Source: Eledone cirrhosa
Lineage: Eukaryota
Assembly (NCBI GenBank): GCA_964016885.1
Contig: OZ024743.1
Coordinates: 255,750,001-255,814,000, forward strand
Direction: 5' to 3'
Length of the DNA: 64,000 nt
Part shown: positions 1,724-64,000 of the stretch, in pieces
Numbering within the stretch: position 1 is the stretch's first letter
Layout of the letters: the number at the start of each line of letters is the position of its first letter
Translations under genes and position numbers: made by a program
Notes under the pieces: generated by a model
Seen by the model: the letters and a program-made list of their open reading frames with translations, nothing else
Database searches by the model: none
Told to the model about the DNA's origin: nothing

Positions 1724-1790
1724 TCTATATGTATCTATCTATCTATCTATCTATCTATCTCTCTATATATATAATAGATCTATATATATA

Positions 1791-3513
1791 ATAGATCCAA
1801 CAGAGGGACCAGCTATTGAGATTGACGAATATAGGGTCCAAGAGGCGATTAAGGAAATGAAAAAGGGTAAGGCCGCTTGACCATTGGGGATAGTTGCTGA
1901 GATGCTGAAGGCGTCAGTGGACGTAGGCACTAAACTGGTTGCACGCTTCATCAATCAGGCTATATATGGTGGTGTCATACCCAAAGACTGGTGCAGCAGT
2001 ATTCTCATAAATTGCTACAAAGGTAAAGGGGATGCTCTGGAGAAGAGCAATTATAGGGACATAAAACTGATGGATCAGGTCATGAAAGTGGCAGAAAGGA
2101 TATAAGCACAACTAATTAGAGAAAGGGTCAAACTAGATGAGATGTAGTTTAGTTTTGTGCCTGGGAAAAGTACAACGGATGCCCTCTTCTTAGTGAGACA
2201 ATTACAAGAGAGGTTCTTAGAGAAGAATAAGCCACTATACTTAGCTTTTGTTGACCTAGAGAAACCCTTTGATAGGGTACCCCAATCTGTCATCTGGTGG
2301 TCCCTAAGGAAGCTAGATGTTGAGGAATGGCTTGTGACAGTGCAAGCTTTGTACAAAGGTGCTGTCAGTAAAGTGAGGGTAGGAATGGAGTTTAGTGAGG
2401 AATTCCAGATACAAGTAGGTGTACATCAGGGTTCGGTCCTCAACCTGCTCTTGTTCATTATAGTCCTCCAAGCAGTAACAGAGGAGTTTAAGACTGGCTG
2501 TCCATTGGAAATTCTCTATGCCGACGATCTGGTTCTTATAGCAGAATCAGTAGAGGAGCTAGAGAATAAATTCTGGCTATGGAAACAGCAGTGGGAAGCA
2601 AGAGGACTGAGAGTGATCCTAGCTAAGACAAAGGTGTTGATGAGTAGAAAAGAGGACAAAACTCTGATTACATCAGGGAAATGGCCATGTCCTATATGCA
2701 GAAAAGGAACTGGCATAAATTCTATAAAATTCTACACAATCCAGATCTTGGGTACACAAGAGATGTAGGGGGATAGCAGGCAAACTAACAGGTAGGGAGA
2801 AATATGTATGCAGTAGATGTACAGGGAAATTTGACATTAGAAGACGCATTGATATACATATTTTTCAAATGCAGGTGGGTTCTATAGAAGTGGTTGATAA
2901 CTTCCGGTACCTAGGTGATCAGATTAGCATGGGAGGGGATGTGTTCGGAGGCCATAGTATCTAGAATAAGGACATGTTGGAGGAAGTTTAGGGAGCTGCT
3001 TCCTCTGCTGACGAAGAAGGGTTTCTCCCTGCGTACGAAAGGCCGGTTATATGATGCCTGTGTGAGGTGCACAATGATGTATGGTAGTGAGACATGGACA
3101 GCAACTGCATAGGATATGCGACAGCTGGAGAGAAATGAAGCAAGCATGCTCCGTTGGATGTGCAATGTCAATGTGCGTGAATGACCAAACATAGATGAGT
3201 TGAGAAAGAAACTGGGTATAAGAGGGATAAGTGGTGGTGTGCAGGAGAGAAGACTGAGATGGTATGGACATGTGATGCGCATGGAGGATGACCAATGGGT
3301 GAAGAAGTGCCAAGAAATGCCAGTTGAAGGAAAACGTAGTAGAGGAAGACCATGAAAAGCATGGGCGGAGGTGGTAAGAGCAGACCTTAGATCGCTGAAG
3401 CTCACGGAGGAGATGACGAAGGACCGTGACAAGTGGAGAGATGCTGTGCTGAATAGGACCCATCCCTTGCAAGTAGGGAAAAGCGGATGTAAAATGATGA
3501 TGATGATGATGAT
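1791..3513 (+). mobile_element. 5'-truncated, decayed RTE LINE (same family as 28091-31504)
   Basis: RT motifs FVDLEKPFDRVP, GVHQGSVL, LYADDL; MMYGSETW; stops and frameshifts; (GAT)n tail. Confidence 0.95.
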
Positions 3514-3704
3514 ATATATAATTTATATAAGTATATATATATAATTTACATATATATATATATATATATAATTTATAAATGTATATATATATAAATTATA
3601 TATATATAATTTACATATATATATATATATATATATAATTTATAAATGTATATATATATAAATTATATATATATAATTTATATTTGTATATATATATATA
3701 TATA

Positions 3705-5272
3705 TCATCATCTTCATTTAGCGTCCATTTTCCACGCTAGCATGCGTTAGACAGGAATTGTCCCACCTGAGGCAAGGTTGGTTGGGTGACCGAGTCTCGC
3801 TCATATAGGACTATCTAGCCGGTTTTCTACGGCTGGATGCCCTTCCTAACACCAACCACATTTACAGTGTGGAACTGGGAACTTTTTACCGTGTTACCTA
3901 CACGGCCGCTTTACAGCGTGGACTGTGTTTTTTGTCGTGACACCTACACAATCTCGATTTCATTATCTCCTGCTGTTGGTGGGAGTGGGAGGATAGGGTA
4001 GGTGTAGTGGATTGTGGTGTATATTTGGTTAAGAGGTCCTTACTGACTCTAGGATTCACTTTGTACATAGGCAAGGTTATTCTTCAGTATTACTGCGTAG
4101 CGCCAAAGATCTCGGTCCAGAGACATTGTCTTAGAGAGATTTAAGTGCGTAAGATCGGAATTTATCAGATCATCCCATGTTTTTCTGGGTCTACCTACTC
4201 TGTAACTACCATAAATTTTGATTGCCCTTCACTTTTTTATGCAGCTGTCGTCTTTCATGCGCATCACGCGACCATACCAACATAGTCTTCTCTCAAGTAA
4301 ACAGCATCTGATCCCTCTTATTCCTAATTACTCATTTAGTTCATTTATGCTTTGCCGTTCACGTATATTACTATTACACATCCAACGGAGCATACATGCT
4401 TCGTTCCTTTCCAGTCTACGCAGGTCCTCTGCACGTAATGCCCATGTTTCACTGCCATGTAGCATTGTTGTTCTTATACAGGCATCATACAATCTTCATT
4501 TCATTTTTAGAGAGAAACCTTTTGTGGCCAACAGCGGTATAAGCTCTCTGAACCTTTTCCATCCCGTTCTGACTCTGGCTACTGTACTTTCAGAACACCC
4601 TCCACCACTGTTGATTTTGTCACCCAGGTAACGGAAAGTGTCTACTATTTCTATAGAACCATCTGGGCAATAGAAGGAGCTAGTATCCTTTGGACACTTG
4701 CTACTTATTTCACCTGAGCATTGGCCACATATAAAGTCTACATTCTTAGATAGTTTACCTGTGATCCCACTACATCTTTTATGTACCCATACTTTGCATT
4801 TGGGACACAAAATGGAATTTCTGCCTACTCCTTTCCTACACACTGAGCATGGCCATTTCACTGAGGGCACTTGTGCCCTATTTTCCTTTCTACAAACTAG
4901 AACTTTAGTATTCGACAAGTTAACTTTAAGGCCTTTTGATTCTATGCCATGCTTCCATGTTTCGAATTTCTTCTCTAGTTCAGCCATTGATTCAGCTATG
5001 AGCGTTAGATCGTCGGCGTATAGGAGTTCCCATGGGCAGCTGCTCTTGAACTCCTCTGTTATAGCCTGAAGGGCAATAATAAATAAGGGGGGGGGGGGGC
5101 TAAGGACAGCCTTGGTGAACGCCAAATTTTACACTAAATTCTTCACAATATTCATTGTTAATTCTAACCTTACTGACTGTTTCATTATACATAGCTTGTA
5201 CAGCTCTCACAAGCCATTCATCTACACCTAGTTTTCTAAGAGCCCACCAGGTAATGGAGCGGGGGACTATGT
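3705..5272 (-). mobile_element. 5'-truncated RTE LINE (related to 43617-47300 and 55553-58356)
   Basis: ORF 4496-5125 with WELLYADDL and Cys/His finger; 3' UTR and (GAT)n tail at 3705. Confidence 0.95.
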
Positions 5273-5306
5273 CACTTACTTCTTTTTTTACCAAAGGAAG
5301 GGAGAT

Positions 5307-6827: not shown

Positions 6828-6905
<78 letters not shown>

Positions 6906-6968
6906 ATATGTATATATATATATATACATAATAATTGTAAAATGTGGAGATGGAGCACACGAGTTGGA

Positions 6969-6995
<27 letters not shown>

Positions 6996-7000
<5 letters not shown>

Positions 7001-7400
7001 ATAAGTAGAAAAAGACGATTATTAGAAAGAAACAAATTCTTTTTTTCCCTTTTATTTTTTTCACTATTTTTTGGGGTTAGAAAATGTTTAAAACAAAATA
7101 TTTTATGTTGTGTGAAGTGTTAAGGTATTAGTTAATTTATTTATTAATTAACAATGGCATTTATTTATTTATTTATATATTTAATAATTGTCTATTACCG
7201 GTTTCAGCATTATATGCATTATCTAAGGGTGGAATTTATATTGGTGTAAAATGTTGGAGAGAAAATTATGTGATATTGAACATGTTAAGAAAATGAGGAA
7301 GAAAGAATAATAGTATTTACAAAGAAGGTTTTTGAAGTAAAAAGATAAAAGAAAAAAAAAGGGGGTGATGTGGAACATAATAAGGTAATGGGAAAGAAAG
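6996..7400 (-). mobile_element. Terminal module shared with 34307-34510, with a non-canonical hammerhead-like motif
   Basis: 6996-7196 aligns with 34307-34510; minus strand TAGATAA-tGCAT(ata)ATGCt-GAAAC-CG-GTA at 7225-7196. Confidence 0.55.
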
Positions 7401-7787: not shown

Positions 7788-7816
<29 letters not shown>

Positions 7817-7820
<4 letters not shown>

Positions 7821-8337
7821 TCTACAGGACTAAAACTGTTTCATTCATGAGAAATCATCAGGGAGCTGGCTGTCCAAAGTAGTAATATTTATATCTTTTC
7901 TTTTCTGGTGGTAGGAGAGGGTGGGGATTGGAATTGAGGGAGGTCATTGGTTGAAGGATTTAAAGAAAAGGGAGTTCATTAAAAGCTAATTCTTTAAAGC
8001 TATAGTATTAACAAAGGCAGGAAGAATACTGTAAACAAAATCATATTTGGAATACCAATCCTAGTTTATCAATTAGACTAACAATGCCTGTAAGATAGGT
8101 GTCTACAGGATGGGTGGGGTTCAATGGTTTAAAGAGAAGGGACATTTTTTAGAAGCTAATTCTTTAAGGCTTGAATAAGGGTGACAAAGGCAGAGAGGGT
8201 ACCCCTTATTGTGAAGTTTCTCTTAATATATATTCCAGGTGTCGACAAGCACATTCACACACTCGTCCAATTACACATGTACACACACATACACGCACGC
8301 ACACACAGGCAGGCACACACACAACAAACATACATAA
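7817..8337 (-). mobile_element. PLE pseudo-LTR fragment, homologous to 21993-22551, with hammerhead-like core at 7822-7866
   Basis: Reverse complement aligns along its length with 21993-22551; CTGATGA-tTTC(tcat)GAAt-GAAAC...GTC. Confidence 0.75.
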
Positions 8338-17883: not shown

Positions 17884-17926
17884 TTGCCCTGATGAGTCCT
17901 TAATAGGACGAAACATTGTTGGCTAA
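17884..17926 (+). ncRNA. Minimal type I hammerhead ribozyme
   Basis: GCC-CTGATGA-GTCCT(taat)AGGAC-GAAAC-ATT-GTT-GGC; sister copy at 27219-27261 has GUC. Confidence 0.9.
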
Positions 17927-21992: not shown

Positions 21993-22635
21993 TTATGTAT
22001 GTTTGTTGTGTGTGTGCCTGCCTGTGTGTGCGTGTGTGTATGTGTGTGTACATGTGTAAGTGGGCGAGTGTGTGAATGTGCTTGTCGACATCTGGAATAC
22101 ATAATATATTAAAGGAAACTTCATAATAAGGGGAATCACCCCAACACTTGAACCTGTTGATGGAACCCTCTCTGCCTGTGTCACCCTTATTGCAGCCTTA
22201 AAGAATTAGCTTCTAAAGAATTTCCCTTTTCTTTAAACCATTGAACCCCACCCATCCTGTAGACACCTGTCTTACAGGCCATGTTAGTCTAAGTGATAAA
22301 CTAGGGTTGGTATTCCAAATATGATTTTGTTTACAGTATTCTTCCTCCCTTTGTTAATACTATATCTTTAAAGAATTAGCTTTTAATGAACTACCTTTTC
22401 TTTAAATCCTTCAACCAATGGCCTCCACCCATCCCAATCCCCACCCTCTCCTACCACCAGAAAAGAAAAGATATAAATACCACTACTTACTTGGACAGCC
22501 AGCTCCCTGATGATTTCTCACGAATGAAACAGTTCTAGTCCTGTAGAAGCTCTTCTATATTAAAACTTTTCTGCTCTGGTATGTATTGAGTACCTTACTT
22601 ATTATGGTTTCCTCCGATTAAACCCGGAATATCTT
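21993..22635 (+). mobile_element. PLE pseudo-LTR with hammerhead-like core
   Basis: Homologous to 7817-8337; 22565-22635 is homologous to the 5' leader (13020-12950) of the PLE ORF. Confidence 0.8.
22501..22551 (+). ncRNA. Hammerhead-like motif, imperfect helices
   Basis: CTGATGA-tTTC(tcac)GAAt-GAAAC-agttcta-GTC; helix I pairing is weak. Confidence 0.55.
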
Positions 22636-24830: not shown

Positions 24831-25197
24831 GTTTATGTCTCCTTTTCCATGTTGGTAGGTGTTATATGATACTTCTCAAGACAAGAAATTATTGCAAACT
24901 GCCCTTTCTGACACCAAACAGAAATATAGAGTAACTTTTCTTTGTCAATGTTCAATTCCTTTCATGTTGACTAGTAACATTAGTTGAATGGGAAGAAATT
25001 TGGTAAAGTTCACCTGCTGCATTCCTCTATATATTGGCTGAGAGGGATCCTTCTTGTGTATGGATTCCAAATTTTCTTGCAGTGTCCGTCATTCTTTGTT
25101 GAAGTGTTAATTCTGTTGGATCAAAATTTTCCGAGTTGCACGAAAAGTTTTTCCTAGAAACATTTAGGCCAAAGTTGAACTCTTTGCACATATAATT

Positions 25198-27074: not shown

Positions 27075-27340
27075 ATTAGAATACCGGAGCGTGTTGGAGT
27101 TAAACACCCTCTTCGTATTATAGAAATGACAGTAAAAGGTATAGCTCAATGCAGTTAAACAGAGCCAAAAAATTAAGAGAGTAAAACAAAGAATCCTTTA
27201 ATACATCAAAAGTTTTTATTAGCCGACAATGTTTCGTCCTATTAAGGACTCATCAGGGCAATCAAAACAACAAGAAGTAATATCGGCAGATACAAGCCGG
27301 AAACTCTGAAGAATATGGAGTGTGCATACACTAAAGTCTT
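27070..27340 (-). mobile_element. 3' terminal module of the PLE family at 15011-17972
   Basis: Aligns with 17800-17972 in reverse and with 15011-15113 directly. Confidence 0.85.
27219..27261 (-). ncRNA. Minimal type I hammerhead ribozyme
   Basis: GCC-CTGATGA-GTCCT(taat)AGGAC-GAAAC-ATT-GTC-GGC. Confidence 0.9.
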
Positions 27341-28090: not shown

Positions 28091-31000
28091 GTTTGTGAGT
28101 GGTGTGTGTGTTTGTATGCATGAATGAGTGTTGGTATGTGAGTGACGTTTGTGGTTTGTATGCATGAGTGTTGGTGTGTGAGTGTCGTGTCAATAAGTTG
28201 TTGTTTTTTTGTTTTTTTTTATAACCATGCTGTAAAATGGAAGGGTAGAGAGGGCCCTTGAGTCTAGTAAGACATCCTCTCTAGTGCTGGTGGCACAAAT
28301 AAAAGCACCCAGTCCATGCTGTAAAGTGGCGTTGGTGTTAGGAAGGGTATCCAACCAGTGTATTAATGCCAAAACGCTTATCAGCACAGCAACAAATAGG
28401 AACAACAAAATATGATGACGTCGCATCTCAGAGTTGCAACACTTAATGTTGGCACTCTCAGAGGTAGATCTGCTGAAATAGCGGAGATGCTGGAGAGAAG
28501 GCAGGTGGATGTGTGCTGCTTGCAAGAGGTGAGATGGAGAGGTGCGTCTGCGAGACTAGTCGTAGGCAAACGTCTTAGCTATAAGCTATTCTGGGTAGGT
28601 AAGGATGATGGGTTAGGGGGAGTAGGCATTTTCCTGGCTGAGAAATGGATCAATAAGACAATAGAGGTAGTTCGAGTTAGTAATCGAATAATTAAGCTTA
28701 GATTAGTTGTAGGCAGGAGACTACTGACAATCATCTCGGCCTATGCTCCCCAAGTAGGCATAGGAAAAGATGAGAAAGACTGCTTTTACGAGAAACTTTT
28801 ACAAACAACCGCAATGACAGAGGACGGAGACATCGTTATGCTAGCAGGAGACTTCAATGGTCATGTTGGACAGCTTCAGGATGGTTACACTGGGGTACAT
28901 GGTGGGCACGGTTACGGCTCAAGAAATGAGAAGAAGGAGTGAGACTTCTTGAATTTTGTGATGCAGGTACATTGACTATTTGCAACACAAACTTCCAGAA
29001 ACCTGCCAATCACCTAATAACCTACAAATCTGGTGAGCGCATAAGCCAGATTGACTTCTTACTAGTTAGGCAGCGGGACAGGCAGATAGTGTCTAATACC
29101 AAGGCATACCCTGGGGAAGAATGTACCCCACAGCATAGGTTAGTTGTTAGTGATATCTCAATAAGCAAGAGATGGAATGAGACATATAGGAAGGTGTGGA
29201 GAAGAAAAGTCTGGAAGCTAAAAGACCTTTCACTAAAATACAAATTTAGGAAAGCCCTTCAAGATGTATATGACGAAAAAGAAGACGATTTAGAGACCTA
29301 TGACATAGATAATAACTGGAATTTCTTATGTGACAACTTGCTGCAGGCTACTGATGAAACTTGTGGCTGGAGCACAGCTCCAACCAGACAGAGAGTGACC
29401 TGGTGGTGGAACAGCACAGTAGATAAGGCCATTAGAGACAAAAGACTGGCATGGAAGGCTTGGAAAAAGGGTGGGAGTAGGGAAGAATATACAGCCACTA
29501 AGTGAGAAGCTAGACGTCAGGTGTACTTAGCACGCAGGGAGACGGAGAGTAGGAGATTTGCCAATGTTCTGCGACGGGAAGATCAGAGGCGTGCGGTGTT
29601 CCACATTGCAAGGCAGTGTGTCAATGCAAATCAGGATATTGTTGGAGATAAATGTGTCCGGGATGATACCGGTGTACTTAGTGTCACGAATGATCAGAAA
29701 AAGGAGGCATGGAAATGTCATTATGAGAGACTGATGAATGTGGAGAACGAATGGGAGATAGAGAAATTACCCTTAGTAGATCCGACAGAGGGACCAGCTA
29801 TTGAGATTGACGAATATAGGGTCGAAGAGGCGATTAGGGAAATGAAAAATGGTAAGGCTGCTGGACCATCGGGAATAGTTGCTGAGATGCTGAAGGCATC
29901 AGGGGACGTAGGCACTGAACTGGTTGCACGCTTCATCAATCAGGCTATATATGGTGGTGTCATACCCAAAGACTGGTGCAGCAGTATTCTCATAAATTGC
30001 TACAAAGTTAAAGGGGATGCTCTGGAGAGGAGCAATTATAGGGGTATAAAACTGATAGATCAGGTTATGAAAGTGGCAGAAAGGATATTAGCACAACTAA
30101 TTAGAGAAACGGTCAAACTAGATGAGATGCAGTTTGGTTTTGTGCTTGGGAAGAGTACAACAGATGCACTCTTCTTGGTGAGACAATTGCAAGAGAGGTT
30201 CTTAGAGAAAAATAAGCCACTATACTTAGCCTTTGTTGACCTAGAGAAGGCCTTTGATAGGGTACCCCGATCTGTCATCTGGTGGTCCCTAAGGAAGCTA
30301 GGTTTTGGGGAATGGCTTGTGAGGACAGTGCAAACTTTGTACAGAGGTACTCTCAGTAAAGTGAGGGTAGGATTGGAGTTTAGTGAGGAATTCCAGATAC
30401 AAGTAGGAGTACATCAGGGTTCTGTCCTCAGCCCGCTCTTGTTCATTATAGTCCTCCAAGGCATAATAGAGGAGTTTAAGACTGGTTGTCCATGGGAACT
30501 TCTCTATGCTGACGATCTGGTTCTTATAGCAGAATCAGAAGAGGAGCTAGAGAATAAATTATGGCTATGGAAACAGCAGTTGGAAGCGAGAGGACTGAGA
30601 GTGAACCTTGCTAAGACAAAAGTGTTGATGAGTAGAAAAGAGGACAAACCCTGATTCCGTCAGGGAAATGGCCATGTTCGATATGCAGAAAAGGAACTGG
30701 CATAAATTCTATAAAATGCACACAATGCAGATCCTGGGTACACAAGAGATGTAGCGGGATAGCAGGCAAACTAACAGGTAGGGAAAACTATGTATGCAGT
30801 AGATGTACAGGGAAATTAGACAGTAGAAGTAGCATTGATAGACACATTTTTCAAATGCAGGAGGGCGCTATAGAAGTGATGGAAAGCTTCCGGTACCTAG
30901 GAGATCAGATTAGCATGGGAGGAGGGTGTTCTGAGGCCATAGTATCTAGAATAAGTACGGGTTGGAAGAAGTTTAGGGAGCTGCTTCCTCTGTTGACGAA

Positions 31001-31504
31001 GAAGGGTTTCTCCCTGCGTACGAAAGGCCGGTTGTATGATGCCTGTGTAAGGAGCGCGATGCTGCACGGTAGTGAGACATGGGCAGCAACTGCAAGAATA
31101 TGCGACGGCTGGAGAGAAATGAGGCAAAAATGCTCCGTTGGATGTGCAGTGTAAATGTGCGTGAACGACCCAGCATAAATGTGTTGAGAGAGAAACTGTG
31201 TCTGAGAGGGATAGAATGTCGTGTACGAGAGAGGAGACTGAGGTGGTATGGACATGTGATGCGCATGGAGGATGACCGATTGGTGAAGAAGTGCCAAGAA
31301 ATGCCAGTTGAAGGAAGACGCAGTAGAGGTAGACCACGAAAAACATGGGCGGAGGTGGTGAGAACTGACCTCAGATCATTGAAGCTCAGGGTGGAGATGA
31401 CGAAGGACCGTGACGAGTGGAGAGATGCTGTGCTGAATAAGACCCGTCCTACCCTTGCAAGCAGGGAAAAGCGGACGTAAAATGATGATGATGATGATGA
31501 TGAT
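28091..31504 (+). mobile_element. Near full-length RTE LINE (APE endonuclease, RT), few disabling mutations
   Basis: LRVATLNVGTL, CCLQEVRW, SAYAPQ, GDFNGHVG, QIDFLL, QHRLVV; RT FVDLEKAFDRVP, HQGSVLSP, LYADDL; (ATG)n tail; TA on both flanks. Confidence 0.97.
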
Positions 31505-31559
31505 ATATATATATCCATCCCCGTTTTCATACACTTCCTATGAATGCAGGCTGAAGCAT

Positions 31560-32549: not shown

Positions 32550-34218
32550 TTAGCCTTCGACCACCCCCCTCCCCCCACACTTATCCCCCACTAACACCAC
32601 TAACACACTCCTCCTTTTCACCGCCCACCCCACAACTAACAATACTAACACCTCCACTCCACCCCTCATCTGACCACCCTTCCTCAACTAACATACTAAC
32701 ATCCCTTCCCTCCCCTCTTCTCCTCCTCCTCCTCCTTATCACACGCACACACCCACCGGCACATATATACACGCGCTCACACTAAACACACACCCTACTA
32801 CCACCACTAACCCTCACCCCCACACCTCTCACTCCCACACCTCCATCCCACCACCCCGCAACTAACCTCACTAACACCCCCTAACCCCAAGCACACGAAC
32901 ACACGCACCCACTTACACCACCCACCCCACACGCAACTAACATCACTAACACCACCCAACCCCACGCACACGTACCCACACACCCTCGTACACCACCAAC
33001 TCTACACACCCTACCACCACTAACCCCCACTCACACCTGCATTCAACCCCTCCCCACCTCCCGTATACTAACACCCACTAACACCTCTTCATCAAACTAC
33101 ACACACACCAGTACACCACACTCCCTCCATAGAACCACACACACCCTTCTCTCCCCGCTCCACCCACACCCTCGCTCCACACTCACTCATCCCACTAACA
33201 CCCCTACTAATACACACACACACACACACCCTCCTCACTCCAACTTTCACACCTACCCATCCTCGCCCCCTTACCATTCCACCGACTGCTGCTATGCCCT
33301 CTGAGCACCTCCCAGCACTAACAGACCACAGCACTCCCACTGCTGACCACTTCCTGTTGCGCGCGCACCCCACATCTCTCCTCTTCCGACCACCGCTTCA
33401 TGGATTACCCACACGCATACATTCACCTACAACCAATCCACTAAACAACTTTGGAATTTACCAACTTTTCAACCATCCTCTTACGTAATCACCTATATAA
33501 CTCACCCACACACACACCCCAAACAATTTTTTTTCTCCACACGCCACCCACACCCACAACACGCTTAAACCCCACACACACGTGCTTTCCACCACATATT
33601 TACACCCTCAGCCTCCTGATTCCTCTCCCCCCACCCCTCTATCCACACACGCACAGACACTCCGACCCCCCCCCCCCCCCCCCCCCCACACACACACACC
33701 TCTTCCTGAACATGCAACCCCGTTCTTCCCCCAACCCTTACTTTCACATACACACACACACACACGCACACCTACACACACACACCACCTTCAGCCCTCC
33801 CCGCTCGGACACCCCGTCTCCCTCTCCCCACTCCACCTGCCACCACCCCTACACACCCCACACCCTTCCACCACCTGTTTACCCCCCTTTTAATTTCAGT
33901 TTATTTTGATCATGCCTTTATTTTTAAATTTATCTCATTCCTTGTATTTTGATCATGCTTTATTTTTATTTTTATTTTTATTTTTATTTTTATTTTTATC
34001 TTTACTTGTTATTTTTTCATTCGCACCGTTTCCTTTCGCTATATGTCTCTCCACCACTCCCCTACACACCCTTTGAACTCTGTTCCCACACACTTCTCAC
34101 CTGAGGAAGGGCTTATGCCCGAAACGTCGTCCCCCACCTACACCCCACTCTCCAGAGCGTGAAATTAATAAACATTTGTTGTACTGCCTCTCTGTTTTGT
34201 CCCTGTTCAAATTTTTCC

Positions 34219-34220
<2 letters not shown>
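32550..34220 (+). mobile_element. C/A-rich low-complexity element ending in a hammerhead, probable PLE 3' UTR
   Basis: Strong C skew, hammerhead at 34098, TA flanks. Confidence 0.55.
34098..34131 (+). ncRNA. Minimal type I hammerhead ribozyme
   Basis: CTGAGGA-a-GGGC(ttat)GCCC-GAAACGTC with palindromic ACGT helix III; helix I only ~2 bp. Confidence 0.7.
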
Positions 34221-34289
<69 letters not shown>

Positions 34290-34486
34290 ATTTATATATA
34301 TATATATGAAAACAGGGAGAAAGAGACGATTATTAGGAACAAACATTTTGTTTTTCCCTTTTTTTTATTTCTCTCTCTTTTTTTTCTGGGTTAGAAAATG
34401 ATTAAAACGAAATGTTTTACTTTGTGTGAAGTGTTAAGATATTAGTTGATTTATTTATTATTTAACAATGCCATTTATTTATTTAT

Positions 34487-35750
34487 TTATATATTTAATA
34501 ATTGTCTATTGAAGTTTGGATGTCTCTTATAGTTGTATTGGCCCCTGCTGTTGTTGTAAGATGGTGTGTAGCTGTGCTGGTTGTTGAGTTTAGGTTGTAT
34601 CGTGTGGTTGAATTGAGCCCTGCTGATGGTGTAGGGTGTGTAGATTTGATGGACGTGGTTATAGGGTGTGAAGTTGTGGTGGTTGTTGAATTTGGGTTGT
34701 ATTGTATGGTTGTGTTGAGCACTGCTGTTGTTGTAGGGTATGTAGACTTGGTGGTAGTTGTAATAGGGTTGTCTTGTGTGGTTATATTGAGTCCAGTTGT
34801 TGCTGTTATATGGTGTGTAGCTATGGTGGTTGTTGTGGTTAGGGTGTCTCGTGTGGTTGTATTGTCCCCTGCTGGTGTTGTTGTAGTAGGATGTGGTTAG
34901 TGGGGGAGGGCAGATTAGGGTTTCCTTATAGTTGGTGTGTGGTTGTGAGGCCCTGTGTGACATGTGTGGTAGTTGTGTATTTTGGGTTCTATGCTGGAAG
35001 TAATGATGGTTGTGGGTTTGTTGTGTGGGGATGTTATGGGGGTTTGTAAGTGTGGGGGATTTTATGGTTTCTCCTGTTGGGAGTGAAGTTGTAGTGTCTA
35101 TCTTGTAGCTGATGTTTCTCTATTACTATATTTGTTGCTTGGGTGTCCGTGTGGAGGATGTAGGAGGTAGAGGTGAGGTGATGCCTTCTTTTGTTGCTAT
35201 GTGAGGAAGTATTGTTTTGTTGTTGTTGTTGGTTGTTGTGTGGTGTTTGGGTGTTGATTGAGTTTTCTTGTTATTATGGTTTTAATGCAGTGGTTCTTGG
35301 ATGTGTGTTCTTTTTGGAAAAGTGTTTCATAGTTAAAGAACCAGGTTTCGTTTATTTCCCAGCGTTGAAGGGATTTTAATTCTTCCTTATTACAGTCCTC
35401 TAACCATAATTTTGAAATATTTTCTAGGGTGGTGTCTTTGGTTATATTGATAATTGCTAGATTAATCTCATCATCGATTGATTTGATCCTATCATCATTT
35501 ACTTCGGCTCTCAATTTAAGGAGTTCAATTTCGGTTTTTATGTTATCAAGTGCCATTCTTTCCTTAGGCGTCTTTGTGTCTCTGGTTCGTTTGGGATGGA
35601 TTTAAGTTGTAGTTTGCGGGGGATGATTAATGGGGATAAGTTAATCCATTTTTCATAGATCTCCGCTTTGTTATTGTTTTTTATCATCTTCCAAAAGGAG
35701 AATTTCCTGTTTTTAAGTGATGTGTACCATTGTGGTATTAATTTGTTTTT
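34487..35750 (-). pseudogene. Frameshifted unknown ORF: helical/coiled-coil region then Asn/His/Tyr-rich repeats
   Basis: ORF pieces 35538-35750 ([25 protein letters not shown]), 35197-35556 (heptad-like) and 34487-34963 (QYNHTRQP repeats). Confidence 0.6.
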
Positions 35751-35878
<128 letters not shown>

Positions 35879-35905
35879 TATGCATATATAATATATCAGA
35901 TCAAA

Positions 35906-43616: not shown

Positions 43617-46600
43617 TATCATCATCATCGTTTAACGTCCATCTTCCACGCTTGCATGGGTTTGGACGGGAATTTTCCCACTTGAGGCAAGATTGGTTGT
43701 CTTGCTCGTATAGGACTGTCTGGCGGGTTTTCTACGGCTGGATGCCCTTCCTAAAACCAACCACGTTTAACGCGTTACCTACACGGCCACATTACAGCGT
43801 GGACTGTGTATTTTTTTGACGTGACACATACACGACCTCATTTCTTTTGGACTGGATGTTGTGGTACCAACATAACTTTATATTGAAAGGGGTGGTGTGG
43901 ATGGGGTGGGGGTAGTGGGACGGGGGTGTATTTTTGTTAGAGGTGCTTACTGATTGTAGGTTTCGCTTTGTACTTAGGCAAGGCGGGTCTTCTGTATTAC
44001 TGTGTAGCGCCAAAGATCTCGGTCTAGTGACATTGTCTTGGAGAGCTGTAAGTGTGTGAGGTCGGAATTTATCAAGTCGTCCCAGGTTTTTCTGGGTCTG
44101 CCTACTCCGTGGCTACCGTCTATTTTTATCGCCCTGCACTTTTTTATACAGTTGTTGTCTTTCATGCGCATCACGTGACCGTACCAACATAGTCTTCTCT
44201 CGAGTAAACAACATCTGATCCCTCTTATTCCTAATTTCTCCCTTAGTTCGTTTATGCTTTGCCGTTCACGTATATTACTATTACACATCCAGCGGAGCAT
44301 GCAAGCTTCGTTCCTCTCCAGTCTGCGTATATCCTCCGCACACAATGCCCAGGTCTCACTGCCATGTAACATTGCTGTTCGTATACAGGCATCATACAGC
44401 CTGCCTTTCATTTTTAGAGAGAAACCTTTAGCGGCCAATAGTGGTATAAGCTCTCTGAACTTTTAAAATCCCGTTCTGACTCTAGCTACTGTACTTTCAG
44501 AGCACCCTCCACCACTGCTGATTTTGTCACCCAGGTAACAGGTGTCCACTATTTCTATAGAACCATCTGTGCAATGGAATGGGCTAGTATTCTGTGGGCA
44601 CTTGCTGCTACTTATTGCACCAGAGATCCGGACACATATACAATCTATATTCTTAGTTAGCTTACCTGTGATCCCACTACATCTTTTATGCACCCATACT
44701 TTGCATTTGGGACATAAAATGGAGTTTCTACCTACTCCTTTCCTACACACTGAGCATGGCCATTTCCCAGATGGGACCGGCGCCCTATTTCCCTTCCTAC
44801 AAACTTGAACTTTAGTCTTAGAGAGGTTAATTTTAAGGCCTTTTGATTCTAGGCCATGCTTCCATGTTTGGAATTTCTTCTCTAGTTCGGCCATTGATTC
44901 AGCTATGAGCGTTAGATCATCTGCGTATAGGATTTCCCATGGGCAGCTGGTCTTGAACTCCTCTGTTATAGCCTGAAGGGCAATAATAAATAGTAAGGGG
45001 CTAAGAACGGAGCTCTGATGAACACCAACTTTTACGCTAAACTCTTCACTATATTCGTTGTTAATTCTAACCTTGCTGACTGTTTCTTTATACGTAGCTT
45101 TTATAGCTCTCACAAGCCATTCATCAACACCTAGTTTTCTAAGAGCCCACCAGATAATGGAGCGGGGGACTCTGTCAAAGGCTTCCTCCAAGTCAACAAA
45201 AGCTAAGTATAGGGGTTTACTTTTAGCTAGGTACTTCTTCTGTAGTTGTCGTACAATGAAAAGAGCGTCTGTGGTACTTTTACCTGGCACAAACCCGAAC
45301 TGCATTTCATCTAGATCAATTCGCTCTCTGATTTAATTGCGCTATTACTTTTTCTGTGACCTTCATGACCTGGTCGATTAATTTAATGCCTCTATAGTTA
45401 CCCCAATCTAGGGCATCTCCTTTACCCTTGTAGCAGTTAAAGATGATGCTGCTACGCCAGTCCTTCGGAACGACCCCATCTGTATGACTTGGTTTACTAT
45501 CCGGGTGACAATAGTGTGTCCCACCTTTCCAGATGCTTTCAGCATTTCAACAACTATTTCCGAAGGCCCAGCCGCCTTACCCGTCTTCATATCTTTGATT
45601 GCCTTACTTATTATACTACCTTCAACTAGCACTGCTGGTCCCTCTATTGGATCGATGTGGGGGAGACTGTCTTTTTCCCATTTATTCTCCTCATTTAGTA
45701 GCCTTTCGTAGTGACACTTCCAAGCTACCTTCTTATCAGCATCAGTGATGGCAAGTACACCATCATCATTAAGGACACACTTCTTCCCGACAATATCATG
45801 GTTTTCCTTGACACATTGCCTAGCAATCCTGAACACCTCATGTTTTTGGTCCTTGCGTTGTAGAACATGCTTGAATCTTCTTCCCTCTTCTTCCCTTCTT
45901 GCGAAGTACACTTGTCTCCTAGCTTCCCTCCTGGCCACTTGATAGTCTTCTCTACTTCCCCCATCCCGCTATACTTTCGAAGCCTGCTTTCTGGCCTTAA
46001 TTGACTCCTCCACCTTACTGTTCCACCACCACGTTACTCTCCTCCTGCCTATAGGCCTGCTCCAGCCACAGACTTCATCTGCCGCCTTCAGCAGGTTAGC
46101 TTTCAGGAATTCCCACTGTTCCTCTATATTGTACGACTCTAATTGCTCTTCCTTACTGTCAAAAGCATCAAGTAATATGCTTTTAAATTTATTACTGGCT
46201 GTGGGTTCCTTTAGCTTACATATTTTTCTCCTGAGTATAGTCCTCCACTGTTGTTGAGTACGTCTTGTCCTGACTATGAGGTCGCTGACTATGAGTCTAT
46301 GTTGGGAGGTGCATTCTTCATGGGGGAGGGATTTAGTGTTTATAACAGACGTCTTCTGGTAAGGATATAATCTATCTGACTGGCGTGTTCCCCTGATCTA
46401 TGGGTGATCAAGTGATTGTCTCGTTTTTTGAAGTTAGTGTTACAGATAGTTAGGTTATTTGCGTCACAGAATTCCAGGATTCTTGAGCATTCCCCATTTC
46501 TAGTATCAAACCTATAGCCTCCATGGATTCCGTCATAGCCATCACAATGTTGTCCAATGTGACTATTTAGGTCACCAGCAATAATTATGTGGTCACTGTT

Positions 46601-47300
46601 CGTTATTTGGGAGGTAGTGAGCATCAGTGTCTCATAGAATCTGTCTTTTATAACACCAGGCAGTCCGGATTGGGGTGCATACGCAGATATTACTGTCACA
46701 ACAGTTCTATTTAGGACAAGTTATATTGTAATTATTCTGTCGTTCACTCTATTTACGTCTATTATCTTATCTACCCATTTTTCTGCTAACATGATTTCTA
46801 CCCCACCCAGCCCATTGTCATTTCCCACCCAGAAAAGCTTATAGCATCGTTTTTTACCCACAATGAATCTAGCAGACCCACCCCTCCACCTGGTCTCTTG
46901 GATACAGCAAACATCAACCTCCTTACGTTCAAGCATTTCTACAACCTCGTTAGAGCGACCTTTTAAGGTGCCTACATGCATGGTACCAACTCTGAAGTTT
47001 TTGGATTGCATTTGGTGGGTGGGAACGATGGGGCGTGGGGAGGGGTGCTGGGGTGCTGGGGTTGGGGTTATGTTGGCCATCTGCGGCCGAAATAAAGAGG
47101 AGGAGTTCTTGCCTTTTCGTCAGGCAGCATGAGGTGAATTTGTCTTTTTCTTAACTATATGCTGAAAGGCATTGTGTAAGGTGCCCTACCAATACTGACA
47201 AATCACTGCCCCAGAACTTGTGTTTTTTAGCCCAAGGACAGATATAGCCTCATGACTGATGTTTAGCCCCAGGACAGACAGAGGTAGCTTAGCGACAGGA
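43617..47300 (-). mobile_element. Near full-length decayed RTE LINE
   Basis: APE motifs FRVGTMHVGTL, CCIQETRW, SAYAPQ, QIDYIL; RT ORF 44463-45305; 3' UTR and (GAT)n; 5' boundary uncertain. Confidence 0.95.
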
Positions 47301-55557: not shown

Positions 55558-58354
55558 ACGTGACAGAGTGTCTTTATATCCTTACCAGAAGACGTGACAG
55601 AGTGTCTGTTGTAAACACTAAATCCCTCCCCCATGAAGAATGCACCTCCCAACATAGACTGATAATTAGCGACCTCATAGTCAGGACGAGACGTACCCGA
55701 CAGCAGAAGAGGACTATCCTCAGGAGGAAAATATGGAAACTAAAGGACCCCACAGCCAGAAATAAATTTCAAAGCATATTACTTGATGCTTTCGACAGTA
55801 AGGAAGAGCATCTAGAATCGGACAATATAGAGGGACAGTGGAAATTTCTGAAAGCAAACCTGCTGTTGGCGACAGACGAGGTCTGTGGCTGGAGCAGGCC
55901 TGTAGGCAGGAGGAGAGTAACATGGTGGTGGAACAATAGGGTGGAGGGGTCAATTAAGGCCAAAAAGCAGGCTTGGAAAGTATGGCGGGATGGGGGAAGT
56001 AGAGTAGACTATCAAGTGGCCAGGAGGGAAGCTAGGAGAGAAGTGTACTTAGCAAGAAGGGAAGCTGAGGAAAGAAAGTTCAAGCATGTTCTACAACGCG
56101 ATGACCAAAAACGTGAGGTGTTCAGGATTGCCAGGCAATGCGTCAAGGAAAACCGTGATATTGTCGGGGAGAAGTGTGTACTTAACGATGATGGCATCGC
56201 CGACTTGCCATCACCGACACTGATAAGAAGGTAGCTTGGAAGTGTCACTATGAAAGGCTACTAAATGAGGAGAATAAATGGGAGAAAGACAGTCTCCCCC
56301 ATATCGACCCGATAGAGGGACCAGCAGTGTTAGTCGAGGGGAGTATAATAAGTAAGGCAATCAAGGATATGAAGACTGGTAAGGCGGCTGGGCCTTCGGA
56401 AATAGTTGCTGAGATGCTGAAGGCATCTGGCACGGTGGGACACACCATGGTCACCCGCATATTTAACCAAGTCGTACAGAATGGGGTTGTTCCGAAGGAC
56501 TGGCATAGCAGCAGCATCGTTAACTGTTATAAGGGTAAAGGAGACGCCCTAGATAGGAGTAACTATAGAGGCATTAAATTAATCGACCAGGTCATGAAGG
56601 TCACGGAAAAAGTAATAGCGCAACTAATCAGAGAGAGAATTGATCTAGATGAAATGCAGTTCGGGTTTGTGTCAGGCAAAAGCACCACAGACGCTCTTTT
56701 CATAGTACGACAACTACAGGAGAAGTACCTAGCTAAAGGTAAACCCCTCTACTTAGCTTTTGTCGACCTGGAGAAAGCCTTCGACAGAGTCCCCCGCTCC
56801 ATTATCTGGTGGGCTCTTAGAAAACTAGGCGTTGACGAATGGCTTGTGAGGGCTATACAAGCCATGTATAAAGAAACAGTCAGCAAGGTTAGAATTAACA
56901 ACGAATATAGTGAAGAGTTTAGCGTAAAAGTTGGCGTCCATCAGGGCTCTGTTCTCAGCCCCCTACTATTTATTATTGCCCTTCAGGCTATAACAGAGGA
57001 GTTCAAGACAGGCTGCCCATGGGAACTCCTATACGCAGACGACCTGACACTCATAGCGGAATCAATGGCCGAGCTAGAGAAGAAATTCCAAACATGGAAG
57101 CACGGCCTAGAGTCAAAAGGACTTAAAATTAACCTCGCTAAGACCAAAGTTCTAGTTTGTAGGAAAGAAAACAAGGCGGCGGTCCCTTCTGGGAAATGGT
57201 CATGCTCGGTATGTAGGAAAGGCGTAGGTAGAAACTCCATCTTATGTCCTAAATGCAAAGTATGGGTGCATAAAAGATGTAGTGGGATCACAGGTAAGCT
57301 AACTAAGAACATAGACTTTACATGTGGCCGGTGTTCTGGTGCAATAAGTAGCAGCAAGTGCCCACAAAATACTAGCTCTTTCAATTGCGCAGAGGGTTCT
57401 ATAGAAATAGTGGACAGCTTCCGTTACCTGGGCGATAAAATCAGCAGTGGGGGAGGGTGCTCTGAAAGTACTGTAGCTAGAGTCAGAACTGGTTGGAAAA
57501 AGTTCAGAGAGCTTATACCACTATTAGCTGCTAAAGGGTTCTCCCTAAAAATGAAAGGCAGGTTGTACGATGCCTGCATACGAACAGCAATGTTGCATGG
57601 TAGTGAGACCTGGGCATTGTGTGCAGAGGATATACGCAGACTAGAGAGGAACGATGCTTGCATGCTCCGCTGGATGTGTAACAGTAATATACGTGAACGG
57701 CAAAGCATAAACGAACTAAGGAAAAAATTAGAGATAAGAGGGATCAGATGTTGTTTACTCGAGAGAAGGCTGCGTTGGTATGGACACGTGATGCGCATGA
57801 AAGTCGATAGCTGTATTACAAAGTGCAGGGCAATAAAGATAGACGGTAGCCACGGAATAGGCAGACCTAGAAAAACATGGGATGAGCTGATAAACTCCGA
57901 CCTCACACACTTACACCTCTCCAAGACAATGTCACTGGACCGTGACCTTTGGCGGTACTCAGTAACAGAGAAGACCCGCCTTGCCAGTAGGCATCTCTAA
58001 CAAACTACACCCCGTCCCGCCACCACCCCCACCCCATCCACACCACCCCGTTCCATGTAAAGTTATGTTGGTGCCGCGCCATCCAGGTCGAAACAAACGA
58101 GATCGTGTAGGTGTCACGACAAAAAAACACACAGTCCACGCTGTAATGTGGCCGTGTAGGCAACACGGTAAAAACCTCCCAGACCCACACTGTAAATGTG
58201 GTTGGTGTTAGGAAGGGCATCCAACTGTAGAAAACCTGCCAGACAGTCCTATGCGAGCAAGACAATCACTCTTGCCTCAAGTGGGACTACCCCCGTCCAA
58301 ACCCATGCAAGCGTGGAACACGGACGTTAAACGTTGATGATGATGATGATGATG

Positions 58355-58356
<2 letters not shown>
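55553..58356 (+). mobile_element. 5'-truncated young RTE LINE
   Basis: 557-codon open RT-to-C-terminus frame at 56327-58000; 3' UTR; (GAT)n tail; TA on both flanks. Confidence 0.97.
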
Positions 58357-58405
<49 letters not shown>

Positions 58406-58431
58406 TACATATATATATATATATATATATA

Positions 58432-59994
58432 TAAAGTACCTAGCTAAAAGTAAGCCACTCTACTTGGCATTCGTCGACCTCGAGAAAGCCTTTGACAGAG
58501 TTCCACGTGCTGTAATCTGGTGGGCTCTTAAAAAACTAGGAGTAGATGAATGGCTTGTGAAAGCGGTCCAAACCATGTATAGGGGAGCAGTCAGCAAAGT
58601 TAGGATTAGCAATGAGTATAGCGAGGAATTTAGCGTACAGGTTGGGGTCCACCAGGGCTCTGTTCTTAGCCCCCTCCTGTTCATCATAGTCTTGCAGGCA
58701 ATAATGGAAGAGTTTAAGACTGGATGCCCATGGGAACTCCTGTATGCTGATGACCTCGCACTCATAGCTGAATCTATGGTTGAACTAGAGAATAAATTCC
58801 AAACTTGGAAGCAGGGACTAGAAAGAAAGGGTCTCAAAGTCAACATGACAAAGACTAAGGTCCTTGTAAGTAGACGAGAAAACAGACCCCAGATCCCCTC
58901 TGGGAAATGGCCTTGCTCAGTATGTAGGAAAGGTGTAGGTAGGAACTCCATTATCTGCCCCAAATGCAAACAATGGGTACACAAGAGATGTAGCGGGATC
59001 TCAGGAAGCTTAAATAAGAATGTAGGCTTTACATGTAGCAGCTGTGCTGAGACAGCAAGCAGCAAACAGCCACAGGAAACAAGTACCACCAATCTCTGGG
59101 AGGGCTCTGTAGAAACAGTAGACAGCTTCTGCTACCTAGGTGACCGAATTAGCAGCGGAGGTGGGTGTTCAGAAAGTACAATAACTAGGGTAAGAATGGG
59201 ATGGAAGAAGTTTAGGGAACTACTACCACTGCTAGCTGCAAAAGGCTTCTCCCTCAGAAAGAAAGGCAGACTGCATGATGCGTGTATCCGAACAGCAATG
59301 TTACATGGTAGTGAGACCTGGGCGCTGAAGGTGGAAGACTTACGTAGATTAGAGAGAAACGAAGCCTGCATGCTCCGATGGATGTGTAACAGTAATATAC
59401 ATGAACGACAAAGCATAAATGAATTGAGAGAGAGACTGAGCATAAGAGGAATCAAATGCTGTGTGCAGGAGAGGCGGTTGCGCTGGTATGGACATGTGAT
59501 GCGTATGAAGTATGACAGCTGCATAAAAAGGTGCAGAGCACTAGAAGTTGATGGAAACCGCGGAGTGTAGAGACCCAAGATGACCTGGGATGAGGTGATA
59601 AAAGCCGACCTTACCCAATTACACCTCTCAAAGGCAATGACACACGACCGTGACTTCTGGCGTCACGCAGTAATACAGAGTACCCAACCTCCCATGGGTA
59701 CAAGCTGAAGCATATAGACAATATGCCCCCACCCCCCACCCCACCGCAAGGTGGTCATGGAGGTGCCACAGCAAAAAAGAACCCAACCCACACTGTAAAG
59801 TGGACGTGTAGGCGCCACGAAAAAGCACCCAGTACTCACTGTAAATGAGGTTGGTGTTAGGAAGGGCATCCAGCTGTAGAAATCAAGCCAAATCAGTTCC
59901 TGTATGAACAAGGCATGGTCAGCCGACCAGACACTGCCCACAACAGGACAACCCGTCTAACCCATGCTAGCATGGAAGAACGGACGTAAAACGG

Positions 59995-60028
<34 letters not shown>
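58432..60028 (+). mobile_element. 5'-truncated RTE LINE, sister family
   Basis: ORF 58464-59570 with RT motifs; (GAT)n tail; TA flanks. Confidence 0.95.
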
Positions 60029-60389
60029 ATATATATATATTATGTAGCTAAAATGTGTATGCATGTATTTAGAGAGTACAGTTAATATTCTAAGTATTTT
60101 TGGCCATAAATATGATGTGTAACAATTTCCTAATAGAAAATGATTTCTTAAAAAGCCAGAAATATCAAGAGATACTTAACAAAAGATGAGAAATGTATAA
60201 ATAGAAGGAGATGAAATATTCATATCCCCATTTTGTGTATTCTATTGTGCAGTAGACTGAAATTAAATGAAACCTTTTATTTTTTTCACTAACTTCAAAT
60301 ATCAAGTGATATTTATCATTGGTTACTAACTGCCAGGAAAAAATAGATAATAAATAATATTTCAGTTATTATTATTTATCATTATTATT

Positions 60390-62922: not shown

Positions 62923-62985
62923 GTATATTTCTAATGACTTGAATTTTTATTTCATTGTTTTAACTTATATATATATATATATATA

Positions 62986-64000
62986 ACTCTCATAGCTGAA
63001 ACTATGGCTGATCTAGAGAAGATCTTCCCTGTTTGAAATTCCAAACATGGAAGCATGGCCTAGAATCAAAAGGCCTTAAAGTTAACTTGTCTAAGACTGA
63101 AGTTCTAGTATGTAGAAAGGAAAATGGAACACAGGTGCCCTCTGGGAAATGGCCATGCTCAGTGTGTAGGAATGGAGTATGTAGAAATTCCATTTTATGT
63201 CCCAAATGCAAACTATCGGTACATAAAAGAAGTAATGGGATCACATGTAAGCAATCTAAGAACGTAGATTTTATATGTGGCTGATGCTCAGCTGCAAAAA
63301 GTAGCAAGTGCCCACAGGATACTAGCTCCTTCTATTGCCCAGATGGTTCTATAGAAATAGTGGACACTTTCCGTTACCTGGGTGACAAAATCAGCAGTGG
63401 TGGAGGGTGCTCTGAAAGTACAGTAGCCAGAGTTAGAACGGGGTGGAAAAGGTTCAGAGAGCTTATACCACTATTGGCCACAAAAGGTTTCTCTCTAAAA
63501 ATGAAAAGCAGATAATATGATGCCTGTATACGAACAGCAATGTTACATGGCAGTGAGACATGGGCATTTTGTGCAGATGACCTGCATAGACTGAAATGGA
63601 ATGAAGCATGCATGCTCCGTTGGATGTGTAATAGTAATATATGCGAACGGCAAAACATAAATGAACTAAGTGAGAAATTAGGAATAAGAGGGATCAGAAG
63701 CTGTTTACTTGAGAGAAGACTACGTTGGTATGGTCAGGTGATGTGCATGAAAGACAACAACTGTATAAAAAATTGCAGGGTGATCAAAATTGATGGAAGT
63801 AACGGAGTAGGTAGACCCAGAAAAACCTGGGATGATTTGATAAATTCCAACCTTACACACTTTCACCTCTCTAAGACAAATGTCTCTAGACCGAGATCTT
63901 TGGCGCCACACGGTAATACAGTAGACCCACCATGCCTATGTACAAAGCGAAGCCTACAGTCAGTAGACACCTGTTAACCAAATATACACTCCAACCCACT
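62986..64000 (+). mobile_element. 5'-truncated RTE LINE running off the window
   Basis: HGLESKGLKVN, WPCSVC, MLHGSETW, GRPRKTW; starts in (TA)n. Confidence 0.93.

Follow-up and report, generated by a model that had tools for sequence, protein, structure and literature searches.

A deleted Penelope-like element copy in Eledone cirrhosa, its two-ORF family and an excess of copy starts at a predicted hammerhead cut site

In a 64,000-nt stretch of the Eledone cirrhosa genome, analysed here as a whole and called the window, a decayed coiled-coil ORF is joined to a terminal module at what looks like the cut site of a ribozyme. To which element does this ORF belong, and how did the join arise? A sequence-only reading had proposed an accessory ORF of an element associated with Penelope-like elements (PLEs). 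We favour, with a probability of about 0.65, a joint reading in which the element is an endonuclease-bearing (EN+) PLE with two ORFs, a -1 frameshift likely gives access to the reverse transcriptase (RT), and the join reflects run-off of the RT at a hammerhead-made RNA end.

The window copy and its element

From the alignments, we read positions 34307-35751 (minus strand) as a dead copy of a 4.6-kb endonuclease-bearing PLE, 5'-truncated and internally deleted (Table 1). The copy aligns to family positions 363-1625 and 4431-4684. Its ORF1 part (363-1625) is 96% identical to the family majority, and the ~2.8 kb absent in between comprise the end of ORF1, the whole RT-EN frame, most of the 3' UTR and the hammerhead. 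Between 35751 and 34510 (minus strand), the decayed ORF lies in three frame pieces with long helices and QYNHTRQP-type repeats. As first described, its part inside the window has neither an RT nor a nuclease motif. It stops 19 nt short of the slippery heptamer discussed below, which is absent from the window copy.

The 3' module belongs to a repeat pair, 34221-34510 / 6874-7196, with 78% identity, the (TA)n run included. The match of 34307-34510 to 6996-7196 that had been noticed earlier lies within this longer pair. Homology ends where it had been said to end, at the minus-strand A of GAAACCGGTA (34510 = 7196). The join reads CTTC on the ORF side, then the shared AA, then TAGAC. Because of this 2-base AA microhomology, it fits three positions, which are -1, +1 and +2 when counted from the predicted cut, and one of them is the predicted cut site. 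The solo pLTR near 7 kb carries a ~60-nt tail running toward the ORF1 start.

The (TA)n run at the 3' end is common to the studied copy and a plus-strand PLE 3' end, tail-to-tail. The C-rich stretch at ~32560-34220 is this 3' end, of another PLE family, and finishes with a canonical C3-G8 minimal hammerhead, CTGAGGA...GAAACGTC, at 34101-34128 (plus strand).

Table 1. Features of the studied copy and of the related 3' end in the window.
Feature	Position	Strand	Remark
ORF1 remnant	34510..35751	-	~residues 92-510 of ~530; frameshifts and stops throughout
Piece of conserved all-helical ORF1 domain	35266..35750	-	W/P-conserved, heptad helices
His/Asn/Tyr-rich imperfect repeats (QYNHTRQP type)	34510..34890	-	low-complexity C-half of ORF1
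Deletion junction, AA microhomology	34508..34510	-	34509 is the first base past the predicted GUA cut
Terminal ~200 nt of 3' UTR/pLTR	34307..34509	-	downstream of the hammerhead cut site
(TA)n at element 3' end	34221..34306	.	target microsatellite
(TA)n at 5'-truncation point	35752..35890	.
Solo 3' end/pLTR with (TA)n	6928..7399	-	sister subfamily
Minimal hammerhead, U3-A8 core	7196..7225	-	U4 decayed to A; predicted cut after GUA, between 7196 and 7195

Searching the genome with 34900-35750 gave 714 candidates, and 40 were scored; the window itself aside, these are 89-94% identical to the query. In all 29 other copies fetched, the ORF extends beyond the point at which it breaks off in the window. 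Twenty long stretches define an element of 4.6 kb that ends in (TA)n and has pLTRs and inverted partners. The pLTRs derive from partial tandems and, like the inverted partners and the tail, are present in family copies. A 34-base pattern taken from the 3' end occurs, without mismatch, 1,103 times in the genome, which corresponds to more than 1,000 3' ends. The flanks of the other copies hold the RT, GIY-YIG and hammerhead of one and the same element, and the terminal module is the 3' end/pLTR of a PLE, as had been supposed. Pfam RVT_1 scores above its cut-off in family copies and is deleted from the window copy; GIY-YIG reaches 30.2 bits against a cut-off of 22.6 in one copy (L039). Family copies also show the PLE-type RT motifs GxKF, DKG and YLDD, a CX4CxxC linker, a C-terminal GIY-YIG and a 3' UTR of ~650 nt that contains the hammerhead, followed by the (TA)n end.

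The linker that connects RT with EN reads CGRPNCGIC or its equivalent in four families of the genome. This conforms to CX2-5CxxC, a mark of Neptune/Nematis PLEs (PMC8557442, Craig et al. 2021). As described there, Neptune/Nematis elements resemble the present one in their C-terminal GIY-YIG, CCHH-type cysteines, CX2-5CxxC, GxKF and DKG, and also in their pLTRs, inverted 5'-truncated partners, tail, (TA)n targeting and hammerhead near the 3' end. By its linker, RT and GIY-YIG motifs, we place the element among EN+ PLEs of the Neptune/Nematis type.

Elsewhere in the window, a short piece of GIY-YIG from another PLE lies at 24932-25143 (minus strand; tblastn E 2e-5). Further repeat families, probably LINEs, have several long copies, at 1789-5274, 28428-31509, 43617-46995, 55574-60040 and 62981-64000.

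Copy starts at the predicted cut site

The family hammerhead motif, U-UUGAUAA-U-GCAU-loop-AUGC-U/A-GAAACCGGUA, is conserved in 84 parsed read-through copies of a first sample (S1). Its core is TTGATAA, with U4 in 81 of the 84. The sequence-only reading was right about a non-canonical hammerhead, which has a U3-A8 core; the TAGATAA core that it gave is a decay of the 7-kb copy. In that copy, stem II is GCAU/AUGC and helix III the palindromic ACCGGU. Helix I, already noted as poor, has 1-2 bp in family 1 and a perfect 4 bp in family 2. The core is conserved although the upstream sequence varies between subfamilies, and stem II and helix I show compensatory changes between families. The U3-A8 core recurs in families 2 and 3, with stems II of other sequence. 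Four relatives from outside the genome have a canonical C3-G8 core, the same GAAACCGGUU (ACCGGU palindrome) and a helix I of 4-9 bp.

The motif in the pLTR, with its covariation and predicted cleavage, is by these features a real minimal hammerhead of the U3-A8 variant. Among PLEs, cores of the U3-A8 type, a palindromic helix III and a helix I of 2 bp have been described (PMC4209133). The core variant is as in Schistosoma Cercyon and the short helix I as in Drosophila Penelope, which has 2 bp. An extra base after A9, a G10.1-C11.1 pair and a helix III that needs a dimer are further features shared with the minimal PLE hammerheads of that study. No hammerhead fold is predicted for the family-1 monomer, as expected for dimer-dependent motifs. 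Rfam gave no score for the hammerhead studied here; it scored only a different one, at 27218-27262, with 31.7 bits for Hammerhead_1, below the gathering score of 34. This one (minus strand) and another at 17889 (plus strand) are type I hammerheads in a short dispersed, retrozyme-like repeat. Hammerhead-like sequences CTGATGA...GAAACAGTT also occur at 22507 (plus strand) and 7861 (minus strand), in the repeat 7808-8337 / 21993-22560. In one subfamily (L217, L253, L270), the sequence upstream has been replaced exactly where the hammerhead core begins.

Overall, copies begin at the predicted cut site in three- to six-fold excess. In S1 (98 copies anchored at +2, among the matches listed), five copies begin at +2..-2. 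A second sample, S2, comprised 104 copies anchored at +77, and four of its seven events are also in S1. Seven of its 89 at-risk copies begin at +3..-2, against 1.07 expected (P=1e-4). Another 13 of 102 copies begin in the AT-rich +4..+45 (also given as +7..+45) and none at -3..-17. Among 29 BLAST-selected copies, one begins at -4 and three begin at the cut site. Four copies begin at -31, a subfamily boundary which they inherited and which does not reflect separate events. About 92% of family-1 copies read through the cut site.

The excess could have a local cause. The cut site is AT-rich, and its AT dinucleotide promotes fold-back as well as joins to (TA)n. A deletion or template switch of the ordinary kind, with starts drawn to an AT palindrome and to TAATA microhomology with (TA)n, would agree with the AA at the window join, with the 13 starts in the AT-rich segment and with a family 2 sample that is not significant (3/79 at the site, P=0.5, against a background including its main peak). 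This explanation was confronted with a single control site, 65 nt downstream in matched TAATA context, with hand counts and a null share of 0.50. Genome-wide, 31 distinct (TA)n joins fall at the cut site and 12 at the control (P=0.003). Joins in which the +1 A stays out of phase with the repeat number 15 against 1, in a class defined after the data were seen. Head-to-head palindromes occur at 4 independent loci against 0, three palindromic loci that are segmental duplicates being counted once. The counting of junctions at the GUA that had been proposed earlier thus shows enrichment by both routes (7 against 1.07; 31 against 12). The S2 gap at -3..-17 in family 1 also speaks against a local cause. 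A possible splice donor, GTAAT, lies at -3, a position that starts avoid.

Family 2, with 12,331 genome matches, separates cut site and local sequence: its cut is followed by AAGG and the site has no ATA. Still, joins peak at +1, with 15 of 52 distinct joins (one ambiguous) and 6 at the next best position, or 15 of 36 among nine neighbouring positions, in a hand tally of the first 100 of 479 pattern matches in which near-anchor positions are favoured and +1 absorbs some +2 starts. Taken together, a purely local cause appears unlikely. Start pile-ups can have other causes, since the main start of family 2 lies elsewhere: 39 of 88 3'-end copies (L417-L486) start 64-75 nt upstream of the cut, often as head-to-head pairs. 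This start is probably a promoter or transcription start, or the start of a ~165-nt non-autonomous unit with more than 12,000 genome matches. No such pile-up was seen in family 1 within 1.1 kb upstream (89 copies, 17 censored).

ORF1 and its overlap with RT-EN

In the majority sequence of 17 copies, ORF1 has ~530 aa from the first Met. Its N-half is predicted to form six helices (pLDDT 91.6). Homologues have R/N/Q-rich tails where the window copy has His/Asn/Tyr repeats. The ORF1 profile finds 730 homologue clusters at E<=1e-3, and each of the best 150 of these is at most 473 aa long. No Pfam family is common to more than 1 of 103 members, in keeping with an ORF that is not the ORF1 of an ordinary LINE. 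None of the LINE ORF1 types (L1, RRM, esterase, CCHC, PHD) was recognised in these members, and ORF2 is an RT-GIY-YIG protein, not an apurinic endonuclease-RT. Foldseek gave no match to the ORF1 model at E<=0.001. The best VIA Z score was 8.9 (rmsd 6.4), with matches to generic helical bundles, and fold and PDB sequence searches returned only generic helical or coiled-coil proteins. Leads from a language-model atlas to gag-like clusters are weak, all below 0.9. An initial metagenome scan with the ORF1 alignment found no matches, and a homodimer prediction computed without an alignment scored 0.02. By its sequence, ORF1 is the first ORF of an autonomous RT+GIY-YIG element, normally 2.8 kb upstream of the 3' module, and the set of at least 730 clusters constitutes, on the same evidence, a large unclassified all-helical protein family. 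Clade elements also appear inside bacterial metagenome-assembled genomes and under bacterial protein names (L411-L416; P0190, P0216, P0220, P0236), probably through host contamination.

The RT-EN frame of the majority sequence, 780 codons long, lies in -1 and overlaps ORF1 by 43 nt. In family 1, the overlap contains CAT-TTT-TTA, with no Met ahead of GxKF. The T6A of the heptamer T-TTT-TTA is exact in 23 of 29 copies. Layout and heptamer recur, with many intact copies, in three more families of this genome, at 56-75% identity to family 1 in RT and 35-48% in ORF1. An inherited defect in place of a programmed shift was rejected on the ground that the layout is common to families at 56% RT identity. 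With an RT alignment, 86 loci were fetched from outside the genome, six of which match the ORF1 profile. Nine were inspected, these six and three close relatives with upstream DNA. All nine have an in-phase TTTTTTN with RT in -1, the RT being broken in one; a tenth, L350, has no upstream DNA and is excluded from this count. The other 76, seen by script screen only, are mostly distant PLEs without such a site.

Protein sequences tell the same story at larger scale. Among 70 ORF1 homologues of at least 340 aa, 60 have FL within the last 60 aa and 4 have it in the preceding 60 aa, taken as control. In 20 of the 60 (P0008-P0155), FL stands exactly 12 residues from the C-terminus. The ORF1 stop lies 30 nt past the heptamer in five of the nine outside loci (L333, L337, L340, L344, L345) and in families 1 and 4. 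Although lengths up to 1357 were permitted, none of the best 120 RT-EN homologues exceeds 803 aa. The 30-nt spacing from heptamer to stop, found in many distant relatives, is about one ribosome footprint.

A stem is predicted to follow the slippery site in families 2 and 3 (-8.7 and -9.3 kcal/mol, computed without shuffle control or pseudoknot folding). No stimulatory structure was found after the site in families 1 and 4, with -1.5 to -2 kcal/mol in family 1. In family 3 (L316-L320, L327, L329), a poly-C run 40 nt past the slippery site varies in length, and this change fuses ORF1 and RT-EN in frame in at least five copies. A single-ORF lineage was rejected for these copies; their poly-C lengths differ, and we read the fusions as copy-level slippage.

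Retroviral and LTR-element Gag-Pol is made by -1 frameshifting on U-UUU-UUA, with the structural ORF in excess and the enzyme as a minor fusion. LINE ORF1 proteins combine a coiled coil with a basic or low-complexity tail. The present element resembles both in layout; sequence and fold searches matched its ORF1 to neither Gag nor LINE ORF1 domains. The RT-EN protein could also be reached if the polymerase slips within the T6 run, or else through splicing or re-initiation. T6 runs can slip during transcription, PLEs have introns, and families 1 and 4 offer no stimulator. Against this, all families and the outside loci hold the run in a single codon phase (X-TTT-TTN), no Met lies between the heptamer and GxKF in any of the four families, and T7 copies are rare (1 of 29). 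We therefore regard these routes as improbable, and the pattern of conservation argues that RT-EN is very probably made by programmed -1 ribosomal frameshifting.

In the available text of several reports, EN+ PLEs are described as single-ORF elements (PMC8557442, PMC6431247, PMC11167929), and one of them divides PLEs into those with a single ORF and EN and those with two ORFs and no EN (PMC6431247). Neptune/Nematis elements are likewise described with a single ORF, whereas ORF1 is here a separate frame and the -1 slippery site is conserved, with two overlapping ORFs in four families and nine of nine outside loci. We treat this layout as a variant within EN+ PLEs, not as a ground for exclusion from the class. 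The legend of Fig. 1 in Craig 2021 (PMC8557442) and its preprint mention an ORF1 separated by a frameshift and a pseudoknot, the clade being unnamed, and a killifish Neptune is given two non-overlapping ORFs with no frameshift (PMC12602865). In the literature covered, which included few subscription papers, we found no report of two ORFs with a frameshift, or of junctions at the cut site, for EN+ PLEs. Priority for ORF1 and the frameshift in EN+ PLEs is uncertain.

Proposed course of events

How could such an element give rise to the window copy? Most ribosomes would make ORF1 alone, and a minority would slip to make ORF1-RT-EN. ORF1 may package RNA as a helical oligomer with a disordered tail, in a role like that of LINE ORF1 or Gag. 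In a tandem transcript, two hammerheads would pair via ACCGGU and cut now and then. Target-primed reverse transcription would begin at the (TA)n end and reach the cut end after 200 nt. There, the RT could join target DNA, fold back, or switch template by 2-3 bases of homology. A switch into ORF1 would yield the window copy and also L137, a second chimera that joins ORF1 to the cut site. For the window join itself, run-off at the cut end followed by a jump into ORF1 via AA pairing is the reading towards which we lean slightly.

Ribozyme cutting is the likeliest cause of the start excess, with stalling and microhomology as alternatives; occasional, dimer-dependent cutting by the hammerhead is probably what produced it. 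As ~92% of copies read through, cutting would be occasional or usually repaired by a seamless jump. Stalling of the RT at the 3' base of a folded or dimerised hammerhead, whose helix III begins at -2, would place starts at -1..+2 without any cleavage, nearly the same positions, and minimal PLE hammerheads cut poorly in vitro (PMC4209133). The hammerhead structure is weak for such a block. A defined end at +1 fits better with L271, a head-to-head join with both arms ending exactly at +1, and with the non-repeat bases found directly before +1. Stalling is thus quite improbable, and we return to cutting as the preferred cause.

The least tenable proposal is that an accessory ORF, from a Terminon-like element or a non-autonomous one, was captured at the end of a PLE: a coiled-coil ORF without enzyme motifs does adjoin a hammerhead-bearing end, yet in all 29 other copies the ORF continues into the same element's RT region, EN is present, the target is (TA)n and no telomeric repeats are found, which makes the proposal extremely improbable. 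A separate coiled-coil PLE ORF, as first suggested, does exist; its accessory status does not hold. Coiled-coil ORFs, a 3'-end hammerhead and a two-ORF layout are shared with the EN-deficient Athena/Terminon PLEs of rotifers (PMC6431247, PMC5408684). Unlike these, with ORF1s compared by description, the present element is EN+, dispersed in (TA)n and 4.6 kb long, with no telomeric repeats beside its hammerhead or accessory enzymes.

Cervera and De la Pena reported low in vitro activity of PLE hammerheads, with no in vivo evidence in the text available (PMC4209133). The hammerhead of another PLE was dispensable in vitro, with no reads ending at the cut site (Frangieh 2024, PMC11167929). Action of PLE hammerheads in cells is stated as open in these papers and in PMC8557442. 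In the present element, copy starts are enriched at the predicted cut site, and this excess is likely the fossil record of cutting that took place now and then in cells.

The copy in the window is itself inert. The thousands of genomic copies provide a countable footprint of any PLE hammerhead action in cells and name the exact families and bases to assay. A conserved frameshift would alter the annotation of EN+ PLEs, where ORF1 is missed or called a host gene and RT is given a false start, and would alter how these elements must be expressed for biochemistry. The element also offers a large unclassified ORF1 family and a stimulator-poor frameshift site for study. On a broader view, the chances are about even that a large animal clade of EN+ PLEs is gag-pol-like, with an unclassified all-helical ORF1 and an RT-EN obtained solely through a -1 shift on U-UUU-UUN, frequently with the stop of ORF1 exactly 30 nt downstream, and that minimal hammerheads cut in the germ line. 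If this is true, the one-base start peak and the chimeras would be evidence of in vivo cutting that is absent from in vitro and RNA-seq work, and even a U3-A8 hammerhead with a 2-bp helix I would cut in the germ line.
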